Shown here one piece after another: positions 4,224 through 61,039 of a stretch of 64,000 nt of DNA. Source of the stretch: Firmicutes bacterium UBA4882. GTDB lineage: Bacteria > Bacillota > UBA4882. Under the pieces are notes generated by a model, which did no database searches, was not told the origin of the DNA, and saw nothing but the letters and a program-made list of their open reading frames with translations. The stretch is taken from NCBI GenBank assembly GCA_002399265.1, contig DHDG01000039.1, positions 33,847-97,846 of the forward strand, written 5' to 3'. The first letter of the stretch is position 1. Each line of letters starts with the position of its first letter. The translations under genes and the position numbers were made by a program.

Positions 4224-5288
4224 TTGAAGAAAATTTTATTTTTATGCCGAGATCGTCTGACAACCAATCGGGCAGGGGACACCATCCAGATCGAGCAAAC
4301 AAAGCAAGCTCTGGAACGACTAAATGTCGAGGTGGACCTGATGACAACGTCCCAAGCTGAAAAGCCGGGTGCTTTTGTGGGACGTTTTTATGACGGAATC
4401 CACTTGTTTAATTTGATCCCGGTGGAAGAGACCTGGAGACAAGCCAGAATTGCAGATAGGCTTGGCATTCCATTCGCTCTGTCAACGATTTACTGGAACA
4501 TCGAGGAATACTTGCAGAAAGGCGGAGAACGGAGCGCCTCAGCGAAGATTTGGTGGCGTCAGGCCCAAACAATCAGACGGCTCCTGGCAGACAGCGCTCA
4601 AATACTACTGCCCAATTCACTGGCAGAAAAGGAGCTGCTCCTTACGGATTTCGGGGAAGATCTGGCCTGGAAAATGCATATTGTTCCCAATGCCGTAGAC
4701 CTGACGTTATCGGAAAACAGCCCTGAGCGATTCCGCACCCAGTTTGGCGTCAAGCGGCAATTTGTGCTCAGCGTGGGACGGATTGTGCGCCGCAAGAATC
4801 AGCTCGCGTTAATCCGCGCTTTGCAGAGTACTAATTTGCAGCTTGTTCTGATCGGTCCGGTCAATGATGCGGACTATTATCGCGAATGCCAAGCAGAAGC
4901 AAGCGACAAAGTGCGTTTTATTCCCGAGTTATCTTCGCAAATGCTGGCGTCCGCCTATGCGGCCGCCCGCGTCCATGCCCTGGTAAGCTGGTATGATACT
5001 CCAGGCCTGGTATCTTTGGAGGCGGCTTTGATGCAGTGTCATATTGTCACTACCGATCGCGGTCCTACCAGAGAGTATTTTGGTGATGATGCTTTTTATT
5101 GCGCGCCGGACTCTCCAGAGTCGATTAAAAATGCGGTGCTTAATGCCTGGAAAGCTTCTGCCAACGATCAATTGCGGGACAAAGTCATCAAAAACTACTC
5201 GTGGCAAAACTCAGCAGCAGCAACTTTGAAAGCCTATGATCATTTTGAAAAAGCAGGCGTGAAGACACGCCTGCTTGAGGAGGGATAG
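4224..5288 (+). CDS. Group-1 glycosyltransferase
   Basis: A GT1 C-terminal domain is present (LSVGRIVRRKNQ...SWYDTPGLVSLEAALMQCHIV). The start is TTG with an upstream GGAGTGG. Confidence 0.8.
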   Translation: MKKILFLCRDRLTTNRAGDTIQIEQTKQALERLNVEVDLMTTSQAEKPGAFVGRFYDGIHLFNLIPVEETWRQARIADRLGIPFALSTIYWNIEEYLQKGGERSASAKIWWRQAQTIRRLLADSAQILLPNSLAEKELLLTDFGEDLAWKMHIVPNAVDLTLSENSPERFRTQFGVKRQFVLSVGRIVRRKNQLALIRALQSTNLQLVLIGPVNDADYYRECQAEASDKVRFIPELSSQMLASAYAAARVHALVSWYDTPGLVSLEAALMQCHIVTTDRGPTREYFGDDAFYCAPDSPESIKNAVLNAWKASANDQLRDKVIKNYSWQNSAAATLKAYDHFEKAGVKTRLLEEG

Positions 5289-18586: not shown

Positions 18587-18663
<77 letters not shown>

Positions 18664-21026: not shown

Positions 21027-21102
21027 AGGGGAGTAGCTCAATTGGTAGAGCATCGGTCTCCAAAACCGAGGGCTGCGGGTTCAAGTCCTGTCTCCCCTGC
21101 CA
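21027..21102 (+). tRNA. tRNA-Trp (anticodon CCA)
   Basis: The acceptor stem is aggggag/ctcccct. The anticodon loop reads cuCCAaa. The sequence ends in ...CCCCTGCCA, like Bacillus tRNA-Trp. Confidence 0.85.
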
Positions 21103-53111: not shown

Positions 53112-54134
53112 TCACTTCCTATAGGTCACTCCCGGAAGATCGGTAATCTCACCGACTACCCAGGCGTTGATTCCCGCTTCTGCCAGGAATGAGACCGCCT
53201 TCACGGCCTGTTTCTCCGGCACAACAGCGACCATTCCCAGACCCATATTAAATGTGCGGAACATTTCCGCCTCGTCTACGCCAGCGGTATTAGCCAAAAA
53301 TCCGAAAATTGGGGGTACTGGCCAAGAGGACAAATTAAAGACCGCCCCGTTACCCTCCGGCAGAATTCTGGGCACATTTTCGGTTAGGCCGCCGCCGGTA
53401 ATATGAGCCAATCCGCGAACCTCCACCTCTTTGATCAGACCCAAAACAGGTTTGACATAAATCTGAGTCGGCGTAAGCAGTACTTCTCCCAGAGGTTTAC
53501 GGAAACCAGCGACATAGTCCTCATAGGACAGCCGATGGTCTTTCATGATCTTGCGTACCAATGAAAAGCCATTACTATGTACACCGGTGGAAGCCATACC
53601 GATTATGGCGTCCCCTTTTTGGATAGAACGGCCGTCAATGATCTGATCATGTTCCACCACGCCGACAGAAAAGCCAGCAATGTCGCATGAGCCAGCCTCC
53701 ATATGACCGGGGTGTTCGGCAGTCTCTCCGCCAATCAGCGAACAGCCTGCCTGACGGCAACCTTCCGCCACGCCCGCGATCACGGCCGCCCCAACATTGA
53801 CGTCCAGTTTGCCGGTCACGAAATAGTCCAGAAAGAAGAGCGGTTCCGCTCCCACCACCACCAAGTCATTGACACACATTGCTACCGCGTCTATACCAAT
53901 CGTATCATGCTTATCCATAAACTGGGATATCATTACTTTAGTGCCGGCACCGTCTGTTGAGGAAACCAGCACCGGGCGCCGATAACCGCCAGGTAGGTCA
54001 CACAAAGCTCCAAAGCCGCCAATGCTGGAGAGTACTTCTGGCCTGCGGGTTGAGGCGGTGTAAGGCGCGATTCTGCGCACAAATTCATTTCCGGCATCAA
54101 TGTTGACACCTGAATCCCGGTAAGTTAAAGACAT
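53112..54134 (-). CDS. purM: Phosphoribosylformylglycinamidine cyclo-ligase (AIR synthetase)
   Basis: A PurM-like N-domain and C-domain are present. The gene overlaps the purF stop by 10 nt. Confidence 0.9.
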   Translation of the reverse strand: MSLTYRDSGVNIDAGNEFVRRIAPYTASTRRPEVLSSIGGFGALCDLPGGYRRPVLVSSTDGAGTKVMISQFMDKHDTIGIDAVAMCVNDLVVVGAEPLFFLDYFVTGKLDVNVGAAVIAGVAEGCRQAGCSLIGGETAEHPGHMEAGSCDIAGFSVGVVEHDQIIDGRSIQKGDAIIGMASTGVHSNGFSLVRKIMKDHRLSYEDYVAGFRKPLGEVLLTPTQIYVKPVLGLIKEVEVRGLAHITGGGLTENVPRILPEGNGAVFNLSSWPVPPIFGFLANTAGVDEAEMFRTFNMGLGMVAVVPEKQAVKAVSFLAEAGINAWVVGEITDLPGVTYRK

Positions 54135-55612
54135 GCTTGCTCCTCCTCCAGAATGTGCTTGCTTCCGCAGTCGCAGCCCCGCGGTATGCCAAATGGATAT
54201 TCTCCGTTAAAGCAGGCTAGACAAAGTCCGTCCGGCAGACCGATCGATTGCTGCAAGCCTTCAATCGTCTGGAAATGCAGTGAATCTGCACCAATAGAGC
54301 GGCGCATCTCATCCACCGAACAAGTAGCGGCAATCAGTTCACGGCTAGCCGAAATATCAATTCCGTAAAAGCAAGGGTATTTAAGGGGCGGTGAACTGAT
54401 AAACATGTGCACCTCTTTTGCTCCAGCCTCATGCAACATTTTGACCAAGAGCTTACTGGTCGTGCCTCTGACAATCGAATCGTCGATGATGACAATCCGT
54501 TTGCCTCTTAAGATCTGGCTGATCGGATGCAGCTTCAGGTTAACCCCCATGTTGCGCTCCGCCTGAAGCGGCCTAATAAAGGTTCTTCCCACATAACGAT
54601 TCACTACCAGCGCGGTATCAAGCGGTAATCCCGATTGTTCGGCGTACCCGATCGCTGTGGAAAAACCGCTCTCTGGAACTGGTACTACCAAATCGGCGTC
54701 AATCTCACTGACCCGCGCTAGTTGGCGTCCCATTTCCTTCCTGGTTTCGTGAACCAGTCGTCCCTCAATGACACTGTCCGCTCTGGAAAAATAGACGAAC
54801 TCCATAGCGCACAGAGCCCGTTTAGTCGGTGGCAACACGCGCTGCGAGCGTATACCATCCGGAGACAAAATCACCATTTCCCCGGGGTCGATATCACGCA
54901 AGACTTCTCCACCAATAGAACTGATCGCGCTCGATTCAGAAGCCACGACATAGCCTTCCGGCACGATCCCGAGGGACAGGGGGCGATTGCCGCCACCGTC
55001 CCTGACAGCGTAAACAGTATTACCGTGCAGAACGACCAGCGAAAAACTACCTTTTAATTTGGACACCGTTTTGCGGATCGCTGATTCGATCGATTCCGTA
55101 CTATATCTGGCAATTAAATTTAAGATTACTTCTGTGTCAGAAGTAGTTTGAAATACTGAACCGCCCTGCGCCAGTTCGTCGCAGAGGGCGGCAGTATTGA
55201 TCAAATTCCCATTATGAGCGACCGCCAGCATGCCCTTCAGACAACGTGCCACGATCGGCTGTGCGTTCACTACTGAGCTGGTGCCGGTCGTTGAGTAACG
55301 CACATGCCCGATTGCTGAGGTTCCAATCAAACCGTCGATAATCGTTTCGTCAAAGACATGCCGGACCATGCCCATGTTTTTATGACAGATCATTTTATGA
55401 CCGTCCGACACGGTGATTCCGGCACTCTCTTGACCGCGGTGCTGCAGTGCATATAACCCCATATAAGACATGCGCGCTGCAGCGCAACCTGAACGCCCGG
55501 CCACCCCAAACACGCCGCATTCCTCGTGCAGACGATCCTCAAAGATGTCTTCTGAGCCTTCCACTGCGCCTGCTATTGGGCCTTCATGCAGTTGGCAATA
55601 CTGTTTTTCCAT
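54125..55612 (-). CDS. purF: Amidophosphoribosyltransferase (with ~30-aa propeptide before the catalytic Cys)
   Basis: The motif ECGVFGV, a PRTase motif, and [4Fe-4S] Cys residues are present. The ATG at 55612 overlaps the purL 3' end by 40 nt. Confidence 0.9.
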
Positions 55613-58572
55613 CTCTGCTCCATCTCCCTTACGGGTACGTCGACACAGGGGGACGGTTCTTCTGTGCTATTTTGATCGCAACAACAAGAGCAAGCGTACT
55701 TTCCCTGTTTAGCTGGCTCGATTGTGATTTGCAGATTCATACCGCCCACTGTTCCCAGTTTAGTAGCACTAATGCCATAATGTCCGGCAAGCTCCACGAT
55801 TGCCGCCGACGACTCCGCCGGAGCTGAGATCAAAATCCGGCTTTGGCTCTCACCGAATAACAGCGCATCGGGCCTGATCAAATTGGAATTAGAATCGGTA
55901 GCCGGCAGGCGCAGTGTGGCACCTTTACCGCCGGCAATACAGCATTCTGCGGCTGCAACCGCCAGACCACCCTCGCTGAGATCATGCGCCGAAACAATGA
56001 GGCTCCGGTCAATGAGCTCCAGAATCAGACTAATCAGCTGCTTCTCTTTCTTAAGATCAAGTTCTGGAACTCGGCCAGCAACCGTTTGGGCACAGACCTT
56101 CAAATACTCGCTGCCGCCAAGCTCTTCCCTGGTCTCGCCCAGCAGAATGACACTGTGGTCCTCTACTTTAAAGGCCATGTCGCATCTTTTGCTAATGTCG
56201 TTTATGAGCCCGAGCATGCCAATAATCGGCGACGGGTAGATCGGCTGGCCGTTGGTTTCGTTGTAAAAACTAACATTACCGCCGATCACCGGCGTTTCAA
56301 GTTCTCGGCAAGCGTCGGCAATCCCGTCAACCCCTCTGGCGAATTGCCAATAAACATCGGGCTTCTCCGGATTACCGTAGTTCAGCCCATCAGTGACTGC
56401 CACCGGTTTGGCACCTGTGCAAGCTACGTTCCGAGCGGCTTCCGCGACTGCAGCAGCTGCACCGGTATAGGGATCGAGATAGCAAAGACGCCCGTTACCA
56501 TCGATTGAAAACGCAATACCCTTTTGCGTATCTTTTACGCGCAAAACAGCAGCATCCGCACTGCCAGGGACGAGTACCGTATTATTTTGGATCATATGAT
56601 CGTATTGCCGATACACCCATTCTTTACTGGCTATGCCCGGAGACGCCAACAGCTTCAGCAGGCACGCATTAAAATCGGACGGCAAAGGGACTGCGTTCAT
56701 ATCATAGTTATTCAGCTCGTCAAGATAGGCGGGCTTTTCACATTCAGTAACGTACTTTGGAGCACCTTGCGTTGACAATGACCAGGCCGGTACTTCTGCC
56801 ACCACTTGGGGTCCTTCATAAAGTCGCAGCATGCCATCGTCGGTTACGGTGCCGACAATATTACAATCCAAACCCCAGCGCTCATAAATGGCGGTGACCG
56901 CTTCCTCGCAACCCGGCTTGGGCACGAGCAGCATCCGTTCCTGAGACTCCGAAAGCATCATTTCATAGGGTGTGATACCTTCTTCGCGGCGTGGCACTTT
57001 CAGCAAATCCATTTCAATGCCGGTATCGGCTCTGGCAGCCATTTCACAAGCTGAGCTGGTCAATCCGGCTGCTCCCATATCCTGAACCCCAACAAGCAAT
57101 TTTGCTTTGATTACTTCCAGAGTAGCTTCAATGAGCAGTTTCTCGGTAAAGGGGTCGCCAACCTGAACGGCGGGCCTTTTTTCTTCGGAGTTTTCATTGA
57201 GCTCACCAGAAGCAAAGCTGGCACCTAAAATGCCATCGCGTCCAGTATTGGCACCAGCCACCATTACAGCATTGCCGACGCCACTAGCGGAAGCGGTGAT
57301 AATATCGTCTGTTTTAGCCAATCCAACACACATCACGTTGACAAGAGGATTACCATAATAACAAGAATCAAACTGAATCTCGCCGCCAATAGTTGGCACG
57401 CCGACACAATTACCATATCCGGCGATGCCAGACACTACGCCCGAAAATAAGTAACGGGTGCGGTCATCCGTCAGTGGACTAAAGCGCAGCGAATTCAGAC
57501 AAGCAACCGGCCGGGCGCCCATAGTGAAGATATCGCGCAGAATGCCGCCAATGCCGGTAGCTGCTCCCTGATAAGGCTCGATCGCCGAAGGATGATTATG
57601 GCTTTCTACTTTCATCACGACCGCCATACCATCGCCAATGTCGATAATGCCGGCGTTTTCACCCGGTCCCTGCAGAATATGGGGGCCTTCTGTAGGAAAG
57701 CGCGAGAATAAAGCCCGGGAATGTTTGTAGGCACAATGTTCAGACCACAGAGCGGCGAACATACCTAATTCAGTAAGATTCGGTTCACGACCAAGCTGGC
57801 TGATGATTCTGTCGTATTCGGCAGAAGTAAGGCCAAGCTCAACTGCTTTTGCTCTCATGCTCATGCTGTCCACCTGCCGCTTCCTGATTAGTGACTTGAT
57901 GATCGACTTAAAAATGTAATTGCCGTCTTCAGAGCCGAGAATGCTTTCCCCGGCCCGCTCTGGATGCGGCATCAGTCCAAAAACGTTGCCGCTTTCATTA
58001 ACAATACCCGCGATATTGGCGACGGAACCATTTGGATTATGCTCGGGAAGCACCGTTCCATTAGAACCGCAATAGCTTAGAACAATACCGCCATAACCGC
58101 GCAAGCGCTCCAAGCCTGTCTCATCAATATAGAAATTGCCGTCCATGTGGGCAATGGGGATGCTCAAAACTTGATCAGGAGTACAGGTGTTCGTAAAAAT
58201 GGTTTCGTTATTTTCAACCTTTAAAAATGTATTATTGCAAATAAAACTGATTCCCTCATTGCGCCGCAGCGCGCCGGGGAGTAAGCCAGACTCCGTCAGA
58301 ATTTGAAAGCCGTTACAGATGCCAATCACTGGACCACCAGATTCCGCAAAACGTCGGACAGCTTCCATGATTGGGGAAAAACGGGCAATCGCGCCTGGAC
58401 GCAAATAATCGCCATAAGAAAAGCCTCCGGGCAGAACGATCGCATCGATATCATTGAACGCCTGCTCACCGTGCCAAATATATTCGGTCTCTTGCTGCAG
58501 CACATCTTCCAGCGCGTGACGGCAATCATCGTCGCAGTTCGATCCCGGGAAAACAACTATTCCAAAGCGCAT
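55573..58572 (-). CDS. purQL: Fused PurQ-PurL: N-terminal glutamine amidotransferase (aa 1-236) joined in-frame to FGAM synthase II (aa 237-999)
   Basis: The PurQ catalytic region (GICNGFQIL...HPER) is followed, with no stop, by a canonical PurL N-terminus [18 protein letters not shown]...[10 protein letters not shown]. An internal ATG at 57864 is preceded by AGGTGG 5 nt upstream. The PurL C-terminus matches the expected ...ELxRAWKxxIxxxLK ending. Confidence 0.85.
55642..55666. repeat. 25-nt repeat copy 2 (GACACAGGGGGACGGTTCTTCTGTG), inside the purL 3' coding region, 30 nt upstream of the purF ATG
   Basis: 24/25 identity with 60511..60535. It contains an imperfect inverted repeat. It encodes ...TEEPSPCVD... 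in PurL. Confidence 0.7.
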
Positions 58573-58863: not shown

Positions 58864-60261
58864 CTAATTCCGATGATAGAGTTGTTCTTCCCAACAAGCG
58901 CAGACTGTTTCAGTCTTTTGAGACGCAATCCCAAGATAATCAAGCGGATTTTCCAGAGCATCACTGCCTCGTTTGCTGATGGTGCCCAGATACTTTGTCA
59001 AAGTCGGCTCCTGTTGGACGATCTCTTTTAGGGATTGGCCTTTTTGATCAGCTTCCAGTGTCATTTTTCGGACGGCTTCATGGGCATTGGGATGACCGGC
59101 GGCCGCCAAGCAAATATAGAGCGGTTCTGCGACAAAGCGTTCGGAAGATTGCTGCGCATTGGCGCGCATCTGGTCAGAATCGACCGTCATTTTCCGGAGC
59201 ACCCGCGTGGTGCGGTCCAGTGCCAAAATGAATCCAGTGACCAGCTCAGGCGCAAACCGGCCGGAAGCCGAATTGGTTAGATCACGCTGATGTTCCGAAA
59301 TTTGATCCATGTAAGCCGTCATGATGCGTGGGGCAAAGCTTTTCCAGAGACTTTTGATATGTTCGAAATTCCAGGGATTTCTCTTATGGGGCATGGTCGA
59401 AGATCCAACTTGCGTAGCAGAAAAGGCCTCGCTGATCTCAGCAATTTCGCTGCGCTGCAGATTACGGAAATCATCCGCTAAATTGGCCAGCACGCCAAAA
59501 GCAGAGACAATGCCATGCAGGTAGTCGAGCAAAAACTCGGGCGCCACAATTTGCGTACTATGCGTGGCTGGCTGCAGGCCAAGTTTTGCCAGGACATTCT
59601 TTTCGAATGCCTCAGGATTATCAATAATGAGCGCGGAAGCGTTATAAGCGCCTACCGCTCCGGCCATTTTTCCTTTCAGCTGTGCAACACCATGATCCAA
59701 ATAAGTAATGCGTTCGCCGAGCCTGGCAACGTATTCCGCAACAGCAAAGCCAAACGTGATGGGTACAGCGTGTTGTCCATGGGTTCTTCCAATTTGAACT
59801 GTGTCTTTTTCGCGTCTGGCCAAGTCGATGAGCTCTTGCTCCAATGCCAGCAACATAGGCCGCAGCAGCTCATGGTAAGCGTCGCGGAACCGCAGTGCAT
59901 TCGCCGTATCCAGAATGTCGACAGAAGTGGCTGTTAAGTGAATATATGGTCGGACGGACTCACTGACCCGCTGGGCAATACAATTCGTCAGAGCCCTGAT
60001 ATTATGATGCGTTCTTTCTTCTTCCTGGTAGACAGCGTCGGGATTAATCGCTGCACAAGCCTTCTCGATTTCGGCAGCAGTTCCGATTGGACAAATACCT
60101 GCTTCTTCTAACCCCTGCGCCAAGGCTGTTTCCACCCGGAGCTGGTAGTGGACGGCTGCATTTTCACTGAAGTAGCTGGACACCTTGTCCATTAACTCTT
60201 GGTTGGATTTATAGTAGCGGTGATCTAGAGGACTGATCTGATCAAATATGTCTCGTTTCAT
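58864..60261 (-). CDS. purB: Adenylosuccinate lyase
   Basis: The fumarate-lyase signature GSSTMPHKRNP is present, with full-length similarity. RBS GGGGAGG lies 7 nt upstream. Confidence 0.9.
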   Translation of the reverse strand: MKRDIFDQISPLDHRYYKSNQELMDKVSSYFSENAAVHYQLRVETALAQGLEEAGICPIGTAAEIEKACAAINPDAVYQEEERTHHNIRALTNCIAQRVSESVRPYIHLTATSVDILDTANALRFRDAYHELLRPMLLALEQELIDLARREKDTVQIGRTHGQHAVPITFGFAVAEYVARLGERITYLDHGVAQLKGKMAGAVGAYNASALIIDNPEAFEKNVLAKLGLQPATHSTQIVAPEFLLDYLHGIVSAFGVLANLADDFRNLQRSEIAEISEAFSATQVGSSTMPHKRNPWNFEHIKSLWKSFAPRIMTAYMDQISEHQRDLTNSASGRFAPELVTGFILALDRTTRVLRKMTVDSDQMRANAQQSSERFVAEPLYICLAAAGHPNAHEAVRKMTLEADQKGQSLKEIVQQEPTLTKYLGTISKRGSDALENPLDYLGIASQKTETVCACWEEQLYHRN

Positions 60262-60330
60262 TTGCGAACCTCCCCGCCTATTTTCCTATTCTCAATATGC
60301 TCCAAAAATCGGTGATTCAGCAAACGCTTT

Positions 60331-60369
60331 CAAAAAAATAAGCAGACAGAACCGGATAATTCTGTCCGC
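60331..60369 (-). terminator. Intrinsic terminator-like hairpin in the purB 5' leader (between promoter and RBS): candidate attenuator
   Basis: On the minus strand, a 10-bp stem gcggacagaa/uucugucugc with an 8-nt loop is followed by UUAUUUUUUUG. It lies ~40 nt downstream of the predicted +1. Confidence 0.5.
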
Positions 60370-60413
60370 CGGAGTCTATCACTTCGTGGCGTAGCGCGTG
60401 GCGTGACACCTAA

Positions 60414-60442
60414 ATTGTACAAGTACTGTTGTCGGTTGTCAA
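60414..60442 (-). promoter_or_regulatory. Sigma-A promoter upstream of purB (TTGACA-17-TACAAT)
   Basis: A perfect -35 and a near-perfect -10 with a 17-nt spacer on the minus strand. Confidence 0.6.
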
Positions 60443-60510: not shown

Positions 60511-60535
60511 GACACAGGGGGACGGTTCTCCTGTG
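60511..60535. repeat. 25-nt repeat copy 1 (GACACAGGGGGACGGTTCTCCTGTG) forming an 8-bp-stem hairpin, immediately after the purE stop
   Basis: The perfect inverted arms GACACAGG/CCTGTGTC (60511-18 / 60530-37) flank an 11-nt loop. It is 24/25 identical to 55642..55666. Confidence 0.7.
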
Positions 60536-60538
60536 TCC

Positions 60539-61039
60539 CTAATAATTGCGCCAGCCATTTTGCTGGAGGCGGTTGTCTTTATCTAAAACCTGTTGTACCA
60601 TGCGTGCTTTGTATGCTTTCATTTTTTCGCGCAATGCTGCGTCGGACAGGCTTAGTATTTGCACGGCCAGAATCCCGGCGTTACGGGCAGCCCCCACTCC
60701 TACGCAGGCAACCGGTATTCCTGATGGCATCTGCACCATGGAAAGCAATGAATCAAGTCCACTAAGGCTCGCACCCAGAATCGGTACCGCAATGACCGGC
60801 AACGTTGTTTCGGAGGCAATTACGCCCGCCAAATGGGCTGCACCGCCAGCTCCAGCGATAATTGCACCGAAACCCTCTGCAGCGGCGGCTTTGGCAAATG
60901 CAGTTGTCTGATCCGGAGTCCGATGCGCCGATAAAATGCGCATACAATATTCGACCCCAAACTCCTCCAGCACCTCGCCGGCCGCTTTCATGATCCCTAA
61001 ATCGGAGTCGCTGCCCATCATGATGGCAACTTTCTGCAT
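60539..61039 (-). CDS. purE: N5-carboxyaminoimidazole ribonucleotide mutase PurE
   Basis: The N-terminus MQKVAIMMGSDSDL and the PurE fold are present. RBS GAGGAGG lies 8 nt upstream. Confidence 0.9.
   Translation of the reverse strand: MQKVAIMMGSDSDLGIMKAAGEVLEEFGVEYCMRILSAHRTPDQTTAFAKAAAAEGFGAIIAGAGGAAHLAGVIASETTLPVIAVPILGASLSGLDSLLSMVQMPSGIPVACVGVGAARNAGILAVQILSLSDAALREKMKAYKARMVQQVLDKDNRLQQNGWRNY

Follow-up and report, generated by a model that had tools for sequence, protein, structure and literature searches.

The window analysed here is a stretch of 64,000 nucleotides from contig DHDG01000039.1 of Firmicutes bacterium UBA4882, and this study concerns a short repeat in its pur gene cluster. 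All of the pur genes (purE, purB, purS, purQ-purL, purF, purM, purN, purH, and purD) are encoded on the minus strand. The 25-mer GACACAGGGGGACGGTTCTTCTGTG is present at 55642-55666 on the plus strand and, matching at 24 of 25 positions, at 60511-60535 on the same strand. When up to three mismatches were allowed, these were the only two matches in the 64 kb, and none was obtained in 100 dinucleotide-preserving shuffles, which bears out the repeat noticed in an earlier sequence-only reading of this DNA. That reading had also placed one copy in frame in purL just before purF and the other between genes, and this holds as well: copy 1 lies within the last 31 codons of the purL open reading frame (ORF), 29 nt upstream of the purF ATG (55612), where it is read as ..STEEPSPCV.., and copy 2 lies in the 277-nt purE-purB spacer, its extended stem starting with the G of purE's TAG stop (60539-60541).

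Both copies are very probably (roughly 85%) repetitive extragenic palindromic (REP) sequences of a system that is widespread in Bacillota and consists of REPs, hairpin-forming REP doublets (REPINs), and REP-associated tyrosine transposases (RAYTs). According to previous studies, REPs are remnants of REPINs, which are formed by two inverted REPs around a spacer and are mobilised by RAYTs (PMC3337134, PMC3116915), and REP DNA is bound and cleaved by RAYTs (PMC4690160). The features concerned are listed below; the sister species is the one described further on, which is represented by locus L137.

60539-61039, minus strand: purE, the stop codon of which abuts REP copy 2
60511-60538, plus strand: REP copy 2, a singlet directly after the purE stop (covariance model 41.2 bits, E 3.3e-11)
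58864-60261, minus strand: purB
55573-58572, minus strand: fused purQ-purL ORF of 999 aa, which hosts an insertion near its 3' end
55642-55666, plus strand: REP copy 1, the intact arm of the purL doublet (covariance model 35.5 bits, E 2.8e-9), without counterpart in the sister species
55645-55665, plus strand: G-rich consensus ACAGGGGGACGGTTCTTCTGT within copy 1, where the mRNA strand encodes T-E-E-P-S-P-C-V
54125-55612, minus strand: purF, the start of which overlaps the end of purL by 40 nt

Copy 2 is composed of a stem, GACACAGG/CCTGTGTC, and a loop, GGGACGGTTCT, and forms a fair hairpin, folding at -13.3 kcal/mol on the mRNA strand (z -2.0) and at -17.7 kcal/mol on the plus strand (z -3.0). 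Copy 1 taken by itself is a weak hairpin with no advantage over shuffles (-7.3 kcal/mol and z -1.0 on the mRNA strand, -12.1 kcal/mol and z -0.7 on the plus strand), so the earlier description of the repeat as hairpin-forming needs to be qualified for this copy. A covariance model of the REP family, scanned over the window, recovered the same two sites and nothing else convincing. The repeat matched no Rfam family, whether the window was scanned at gathering thresholds or the surroundings of the two copies at E<=10. On the minus (mRNA) strand there is no T-run behind either copy, as an intrinsic terminator would require; the sole terminator-like call is antisense (55644-55666, plus strand), and some motif copies in other genomes do carry T-runs.

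The repeat family in Bacillota

A pattern search was carried out with the 21-mer ACAGGGGGACGGTTCTNCTGT (core ACAG-GGGGACGGTTCT-N-CTGT) on one genome per species, and the taxonomic spread given here is a lower bound. The motif was found at at least 116 genome loci, in unrelated contexts, across Bacillota and Coriobacteriia, while about one match would be expected by chance in 596 Gb for 20 fixed bases according to our own calculation. The loci listed come from Bacilli, Clostridia, Negativicutes, Halanaerobiales, Syntrophomonadaceae, Desulfotomaculia-like lineages, and Coriobacteriia. Among them, the Bacillaceae hosts are Niallia, Mesobacillus, Virgibacillus, and Bacillus species; other hosts belong to Lachnospiraceae, Oscillospiraceae, and Clostridiaceae, and to Syntrophomonadaceae, Desulfosporosinus, and Pelotomaculum; and further hosts are Halanaerobiales, the negativicute Anaerospora, and, from Coriobacteriia, Denitrobacterium and Eggerthellaceae. 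Plasmid and phage collections contained no meaningful matches, and the motif is therefore not plasmid or phage sequence.

The profile of 305 copies reads RAR-ACAG-GGGGACGGTTCT-N-CTGT-YTY and carries no information farther out. The flanks of ACAG and CTGT vary from copy to copy yet pair mutually (gggtg...caccc, gtgag...ctcac, tgaa...ttca). For the nine-pair stem of 110 distinct copies, 194 cells were changed on both sides, compared with 90 +/- 13 in shuffles; the covariation score was reached by 0/500 shuffles, and every slid control remained below half of it. Because the stem covaries across copies, each repeat is a hairpin whose 12-nt loop, GGGGACGGTTCT, is conserved and whose stem is free to vary.

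Searching for the 12-nt core with at most one mismatch yielded 308 copies in 806 kb, with up to 8-10 copies in some 8-kb loci. Neighbouring copies no more than 300 nt apart are almost always arranged as a G-rich copy followed by a C-rich copy ('+-', 65 pairs, versus 3 pairs of the '-+' type), and the doublets of Bacillaceae are regular, consisting of a hairpin, a spacer of about 10-40 nt, and an inverted hairpin. About 75% of the copies are located outside ORFs although ORFs account for 85% of the bases, and copies are rare between divergent genes (17 divergent, 138 unidirectional, 41 convergent), all of these context statistics being based on crude ORF calls. Seven doublet-rich loci compared with Rfam gave just sub-threshold matches to generic long hairpins (miRNA precursor).

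In the searchable literature, neither GGGGACGGTTC nor GAACCGTCCCC, written as DNA or as RNA, returned anything but unrelated primer matches, and we found no published description of this REP consensus. Origins from a LexA/Cheo-box, a PurBox, a tRNA-like element, or a group II intron were considered and rejected, since the sequences do not match. Short tandem arrays of partial REP units, with a period of about 21-27 nt (e.g., GGGACACAGGGGGACGGTTCTTCTG repeated), were also observed elsewhere, at loci L015 (48-132), L091 (~1230-1290), L046, L051 (334-420), and L110 (452-780), which suggests either repeated insertion beside an existing copy or slippage.

The transposase gene bracketed by the repeat

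Clustering of the ORFs around the 116 motif loci listed revealed no linked gene, since only ABC ATPases and two-component proteins recurred; the RAYT link emerged only through a search with IS200 and RAYT sequences. Two ORFs, at loci L081 and L047, adjoin the motif directly, and both match Pfam Y1_Tnp. The L081 protein (257 aa), which was the protein covered by the NCBIfam scan, scored 90.4 bits against NF047646 'REP-associated tyrosine transposase' (cut-off 80) and 16.6 bits against the IS200 equivalog (cut-off 55). Its gene is bracketed by the repeat: one copy follows the stop codon at a distance of 22 nt, and another, inverted, precedes the start codon by about 55 nt.

The same arrangement recurs in 80 metagenomic loci that were fetched for their homologues (43-62% identity) and in which the core was matched with at most two mismatches. 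The core lies upstream, within 300 nt, in 46 of the 80, nearly always 48-65 nt from the start codon and in G orientation; it lies downstream in 33, mostly 13-20 nt after the stop codon and in C orientation; and 28 have it on both sides, the chance expectation being about 0.05 core matches per locus by our own calculation. Where a RAYT homologue lacks the exact core, its gene has related cores on its flanks (GGGGACAGG, GGGGACAGGTTC, GGGGACAGGGAC, GGGGACGGGGTT, and GGGACAGGTACCTGTCCC), and repeat and enzyme therefore appear to diverge together, a pattern which implies several co-diverging REP/RAYT subfamilies in Bacillota. Sister cores flanking a RAYT gene were seen at loci L152, L167, L170, L173, L175, and L192.

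The transposase family is large, comprising more than 3400 protein clusters, and public sources name it 'REP element-mobilizing transposase RayT', with some relatives labelled 'Transposase IS200-family protein'. The transposase possesses an extra C-terminal part of about 110 aa, which is annotated as a helix-turn-helix in some members. The gene was found within 8 kb of the motif in only 2 of the 116 motif loci listed, and thus there are many repeats per gene, which fits the ratio of REPs to RAYTs.

The purL insertion and the purE-purB polymorphism

Searching for proteins identical to PurS and PurE led to about 20 contigs from the window's own species, which originate from anaerobic-digester and fermentation metagenomes and include several metagenome-assembled genomes from NCBI. 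A query with full-length PurL led to a sister species with a PurL of 85% identity (protein P0122, locus L137); a query of 275 aa of PurL had returned only fragments of at most 52% identity. The gene order of the sister species is the same, and so is the 40-nt overlap of purL and purF, without the insertion. Its purL reads CAG ATT GCA GCC AGT CGA GTT / TAT GTC GAT GTA CCC, and the window adds 63 bases after GTT, with no target-site duplication visible in the alignment with L137. The parts of the insertion are as follows:

55648-55710, minus strand: in-frame insertion of 63 nt (+21 residues), as seen in the DNA alignment with L137 and in the protein tails
55684-55708, minus strand: decayed second REP arm, with minus strand ACAGGGAAAGTACGCTTGCTCTTGT against consensus ACAGGGGGACGGTTCTCCTGT (17/21 positions, 2 gaps, end to end)
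55666-55683: spacer of the purL doublet, 18 nt, between the decayed and the intact arms

The Cys-rich segment in the PurL tail had been suspected of being an insertion, and the alignment with the C-termini of relatives that had been recommended shows that it is one, as the segment is absent from 31 + 30 PurL homologues and from the DNA of the sister species. The PurL C-terminal ending that follows it is conserved, just as had been described. The sequence-only reading had considered that two copies only, together with a segment common to all PurL orthologues, would point to coincidence; neither is the case. The loop in which the insertion lies is variable in more distant PurLs (0-13 residues), and the alignment with the best PDB relative ends at the residues before it. 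All 20 conspecific contigs carry the identical 63-nt insert.

The decayed arm ACAGGGAAAGTACGCTTGCTCTTGT, which makes up the 5' part of the insert in mRNA sense, has a local alignment score of 20, which was reached by 0/2000 shuffles. The core-to-core distance is 44 nt within the purL insert and 46 nt within this species' intergenic doublet. Since ACAGGGAAAGTACGCTTGCTCTTGT aligns to the consensus at doublet spacing, the purL insert is interpreted as a REPIN with one decayed arm. The decayed arm and the spacer together encode the Cys-rich YACSCCC, and the Cys codons derive from this T/G-rich part of the insert.

At the other site, most conspecific contigs have a purE-purB spacer of 322 nt with a perfect doublet, GGACACAGGGGGACGGTTCTCCTGTGTC - 17 nt - GGACACAGGAGAACCGTCCCCCTGTGTC, which folds at -62.8 kcal/mol (z -10), and the window and four other contigs have a singlet in a 277-nt spacer. 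The 45-nt indel by which doublet and singlet differ is bounded by a 9-nt direct repeat, GGACACAGG. No motif is present at the purE-purB site of the sister species. Both of its empty sites (L137, ~4905-4912 and 68-75) read ACATA on the G-rich strand, and the filled sites of the window (55642-55648 and 60511-60517) read ACACA followed by GGGGGACGG exactly where the empty sites read ACATA. These two cases hint at a defined or preferred insertion target, which would be located 3' of ACAYA.

Three public conspecific contigs, L121, L128, and L132, contain N runs of 452-2255 bases that split many called genes, including purL, purS, and rimM. Assembly breaks induced by the repeat are likely, because one gap, in L128, separates the two arms of the doublet in the purE-purB spacer.

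Several further features of the cluster were observed. The purQ and purL genes form a single ORF (junction near 57860) in the window and in conspecific contigs L124, L126, and L135, and they are separate in most other conspecific contigs, with a purQ of 237 aa and a purL of 763 aa overlapping by 4 nt; the length difference is 2 nt (L117, 6257-9258, versus L124, 6257-9256), which could mean either that the fusion is a genuine allele or that these contigs share an assembly or frameshift variant. The leader of purB lies outside the REP:

60262-60442, minus strand: purB leader with a promoter-like site, counterpart at 150-370 of L137

The promoter of this leader is near-consensus (TTGACA-17-TACAAT, 11/12) and is followed by AGGTGTCACG, a variable insert, CCACGAAGTGATA, a terminator-like 13-bp hairpin with a T7 tail (60370-60341), and the purB start. 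The variable insert measures 12 nt in the window and about 60 nt in its sister-species counterpart, and the flanks, including a possible GTCAC/GTGAT helix, are conserved in both. The leader, which had no match in Rfam at E<=10, may be an attenuator or a riboswitch. Because the promoter-like site is located in the spacer, copy 2 stands at the 3' end of purE's own unit, and purB has a separate promoter downstream of it. Outside the cluster, the window contains two tRNA genes (18587-18660 and 21027-21099), and the GC skew of the plus strand flips near 24 kb, from about +0.05 (8-24 kb) to -0.07 to -0.13 (24-64 kb), so that gene orientation may switch here or a replication-related boundary may lie here.

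Origin of the copies and rival explanations

The small mobile element that had been named first among the candidates, with REP and MITE (a miniature transposable element with inverted repeats) as examples, is supported, the repeat belonging to a REP family that goes with RAYT transposases. It probably replicates as the head-to-head doublet, i.e., a REPIN made up of a G-rich copy, a spacer of about 10-40 nt, and a C-rich copy, which a single-copy HUH/Y1 transposase of about 257 aa would move in trans, acting on single-stranded DNA. The mobilising enzyme would be the RAYT with the C-terminal helix-turn-helix, whose own gene is bracketed by two inverted REPs, and a RAYT encoded elsewhere in the genome would have moved the doublets. 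Two doublets would have inserted in the lineage of the window after its split from the sister species. One of them presumably entered the variable-length loop near the PurL C-terminus, where one arm later decayed, and the insert would have been retained as 21 residues because it was by chance 63 nt long and free of stop codons. The other presumably landed directly behind the purE stop and would have become a singlet in some strains, including the window, through a 45-nt deletion between the GGACACAGG repeats, presumably by slippage, deletion being the direction we infer. Both copies are probably essentially neutral passengers now, and the intergenic hairpin might at most serve as an mRNA 3' stem-loop.

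Several points weigh against the assignment to a REP/REPIN-RAYT system. The window holds only two intact copies and one decayed arm in 64 kb, and no RAYT gene was found in it or in the conspecific loci. When the composition of the 80 metagenomic RAYT loci was compared, the best tetranucleotide correlation was 0.71, versus 0.95 for conspecific DNA, and none was convincing as this species' own RAYT. The covariance model did not detect the decayed arm at E<=10, and this arm is therefore inferred from its alignment with the consensus. Slippage alone could account for the doublet/singlet polymorphism. The near-identical core across classes and in a second phylum is unlike the lineage-specific REPs of Proteobacteria, and the 305-copy profile shows neither the GTAG nor the CGTC tag of the classical REP superfamilies. 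Such a tag defines these superfamilies and not RAYT association as such.

A cis-regulatory element of the pur operon, i.e., an RNA stem-loop or protein operator acting on the translation of purF, on the termination of purE, or on transcript stability, would account for the position of both window copies at pur gene junctions, one at the purE stop and one 29 nt before the purF start, and for the very stable hairpin that the doublet allele places right behind the purE stop. For E. coli, Liang, Rudd and Deutscher (2015) and older malE-malF work reportedly showed that REPs near stop codons can lower the expression of the upstream gene and can stabilise upstream mRNA. However, the sister species has the motif at neither site with the same gene order and purL/purF overlap, strains of one species are split between doublet and singlet, and the same motif stands beside unrelated genes in hundreds of loci. 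Moreover, the mRNA-strand fold of the purL copy is like that of shuffled sequence, neither copy has a U-tract behind it on that strand, and Rfam holds no matching regulatory RNA at E<=10. Since the sister species manages without the copies, strains differ, the purL copy is unstructured on the mRNA strand, and U-tracts are missing, regulation is unlikely to be the reason for the copies, and the protein operator or RNA structure controlling purF translation or stability that the sequence-only reading had offered as further candidates is not supported. A secondary, co-opted effect on purE mRNA is possible, and the hairpin at the purE stop, especially in the doublet allele, could protect the 3' end of purE or hinder termination, which REPs of E. 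coli reportedly do.

Two other kinds of mobile element were weighed against a RAYT-mobilised REP. An origin as the end of an IS200/IS605 element that is autonomous, or of its palindrome-associated derivative (PATE), is suggested by the Y1_Tnp superfamily that the associated protein shares with IS200 and by the IS200 label that some sources give to its relatives; this is a very improbable origin, as the protein passes the RAYT cut-off and falls far below that of the IS200 equivalog, its gene is flanked by inverted copies of one hairpin and not by distinct left and right ends, and the gene is near so few of the motif loci that many repeats must be assigned to each gene, as in REP/RAYT systems. 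A conventional MITE, which would be a deletion derivative of a DDE insertion sequence moved via terminal inverted repeats and leaving target-site duplications, resembles the doublets in having two inverted repeats around a short spacer, yet it is the least credible of the origins considered here. The purL insertion shows no target-site duplication, no DDE transposase recurs near the motif, and the gene that the repeat does bracket encodes a Y1/HUH enzyme. In addition, each repeat is a covarying hairpin, as HUH substrates typically are and DDE terminal repeats are not, and the motif is missing from the plasmid and phage collections.

As a REP family, the repeat can be compared with the gammaproteobacterial systems, namely the E. 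coli REPs and bacterial interspersed mosaic elements (BIMEs) with TnpA-REP and the P. fluorescens REPINs (PMC2817692, PMC3116915, PMC3337134, PMC3479197). Like those REPs, it is an imperfect palindrome of 20-40 nt that is mostly extragenic and avoids divergent promoter regions; its inverted doublets are likely the mobile unit and its singlets remnants; and a Y1/HUH gene is bracketed by inverted REPs, with many repeats per gene. Unlike them, it has no 5' GTAG tag, its 12-nt loop is conserved while the stem is variable, its core is common to several Bacillota classes and Coriobacteriia and not lineage-specific, its transposase carries the C-terminal addition of about 110 aa, and its hosts are Gram-positive anaerobes and bacilli. 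The RAYT literature that we found does not treat Firmicutes.

The closest published description is that of TIRtrons and TIRYTs (Di Nocera et al. 2013, PMC3733652), in which the repeats share GGGGWSAS, inverted repeats containing a motif that starts with GGGG flank RAYT-like genes at fixed distances, and moderately abundant repeat families occur as singles, dimers, or clusters. The cores of related transposases, GGGGACAG, fit GGGGWSAS at 8/8 positions and the window core, GGGGACGG, at 7/8. The hosts named in its text are Stenotrophomonas, Acidobacteria, and others, and not Bacillota. Intragenic in-frame REPs are on record in the same paper (PMC3733652). As with these GTAG/CGTC REPs and the Rickettsia palindromic elements (RPEs), an in-frame palindromic repeat lies in a housekeeping gene and adds a peptide where shorter homologues have none. 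The purL case differs from what is described there in its repeat family and host, in the visible empty site of a sister species, and in being a whole doublet with one decayed arm.

A wider claim can be put forward only tentatively, with somewhat less than even confidence: that this is an undescribed, Bacillota-wide REPIN-RAYT system departing from the proteobacterial paradigm, in which the transposase would read the GGGGACGGTTCT loop (or sister cores such as GGGGACAGG) and leave the stem free, with a core kept across classes and with elements that are still turning over in natural populations and can be used as coding sequence in essential genes. If this is true, a core kept across classes and in Coriobacteriia must either have been inherited vertically since very early times or have spread horizontally. 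We regard the mechanism itself as ordinary, and rate the case as a clean natural example and an entry point to Gram-positive RAYT biology. To our knowledge, the biology of REPINs and RAYTs has been worked out nearly entirely in Proteobacteria.

For the organism, the purL result accounts for the odd Cys-rich segment of 21 residues in PurL and warns annotators that this segment is repeat-derived, and the polymorphism accounts for the length variation of the purE-purB spacer with no need for new regulation. For the family, the analysis yields a concrete REP consensus, its covariance model, and a gene-repeat association for a large group of Gram-positive RAYTs, and the conserved loop with its free stem, the pairs of filled and empty sites, and the doublet/singlet polymorphism are handy for studying how RAYTs recognise their substrates and move them.

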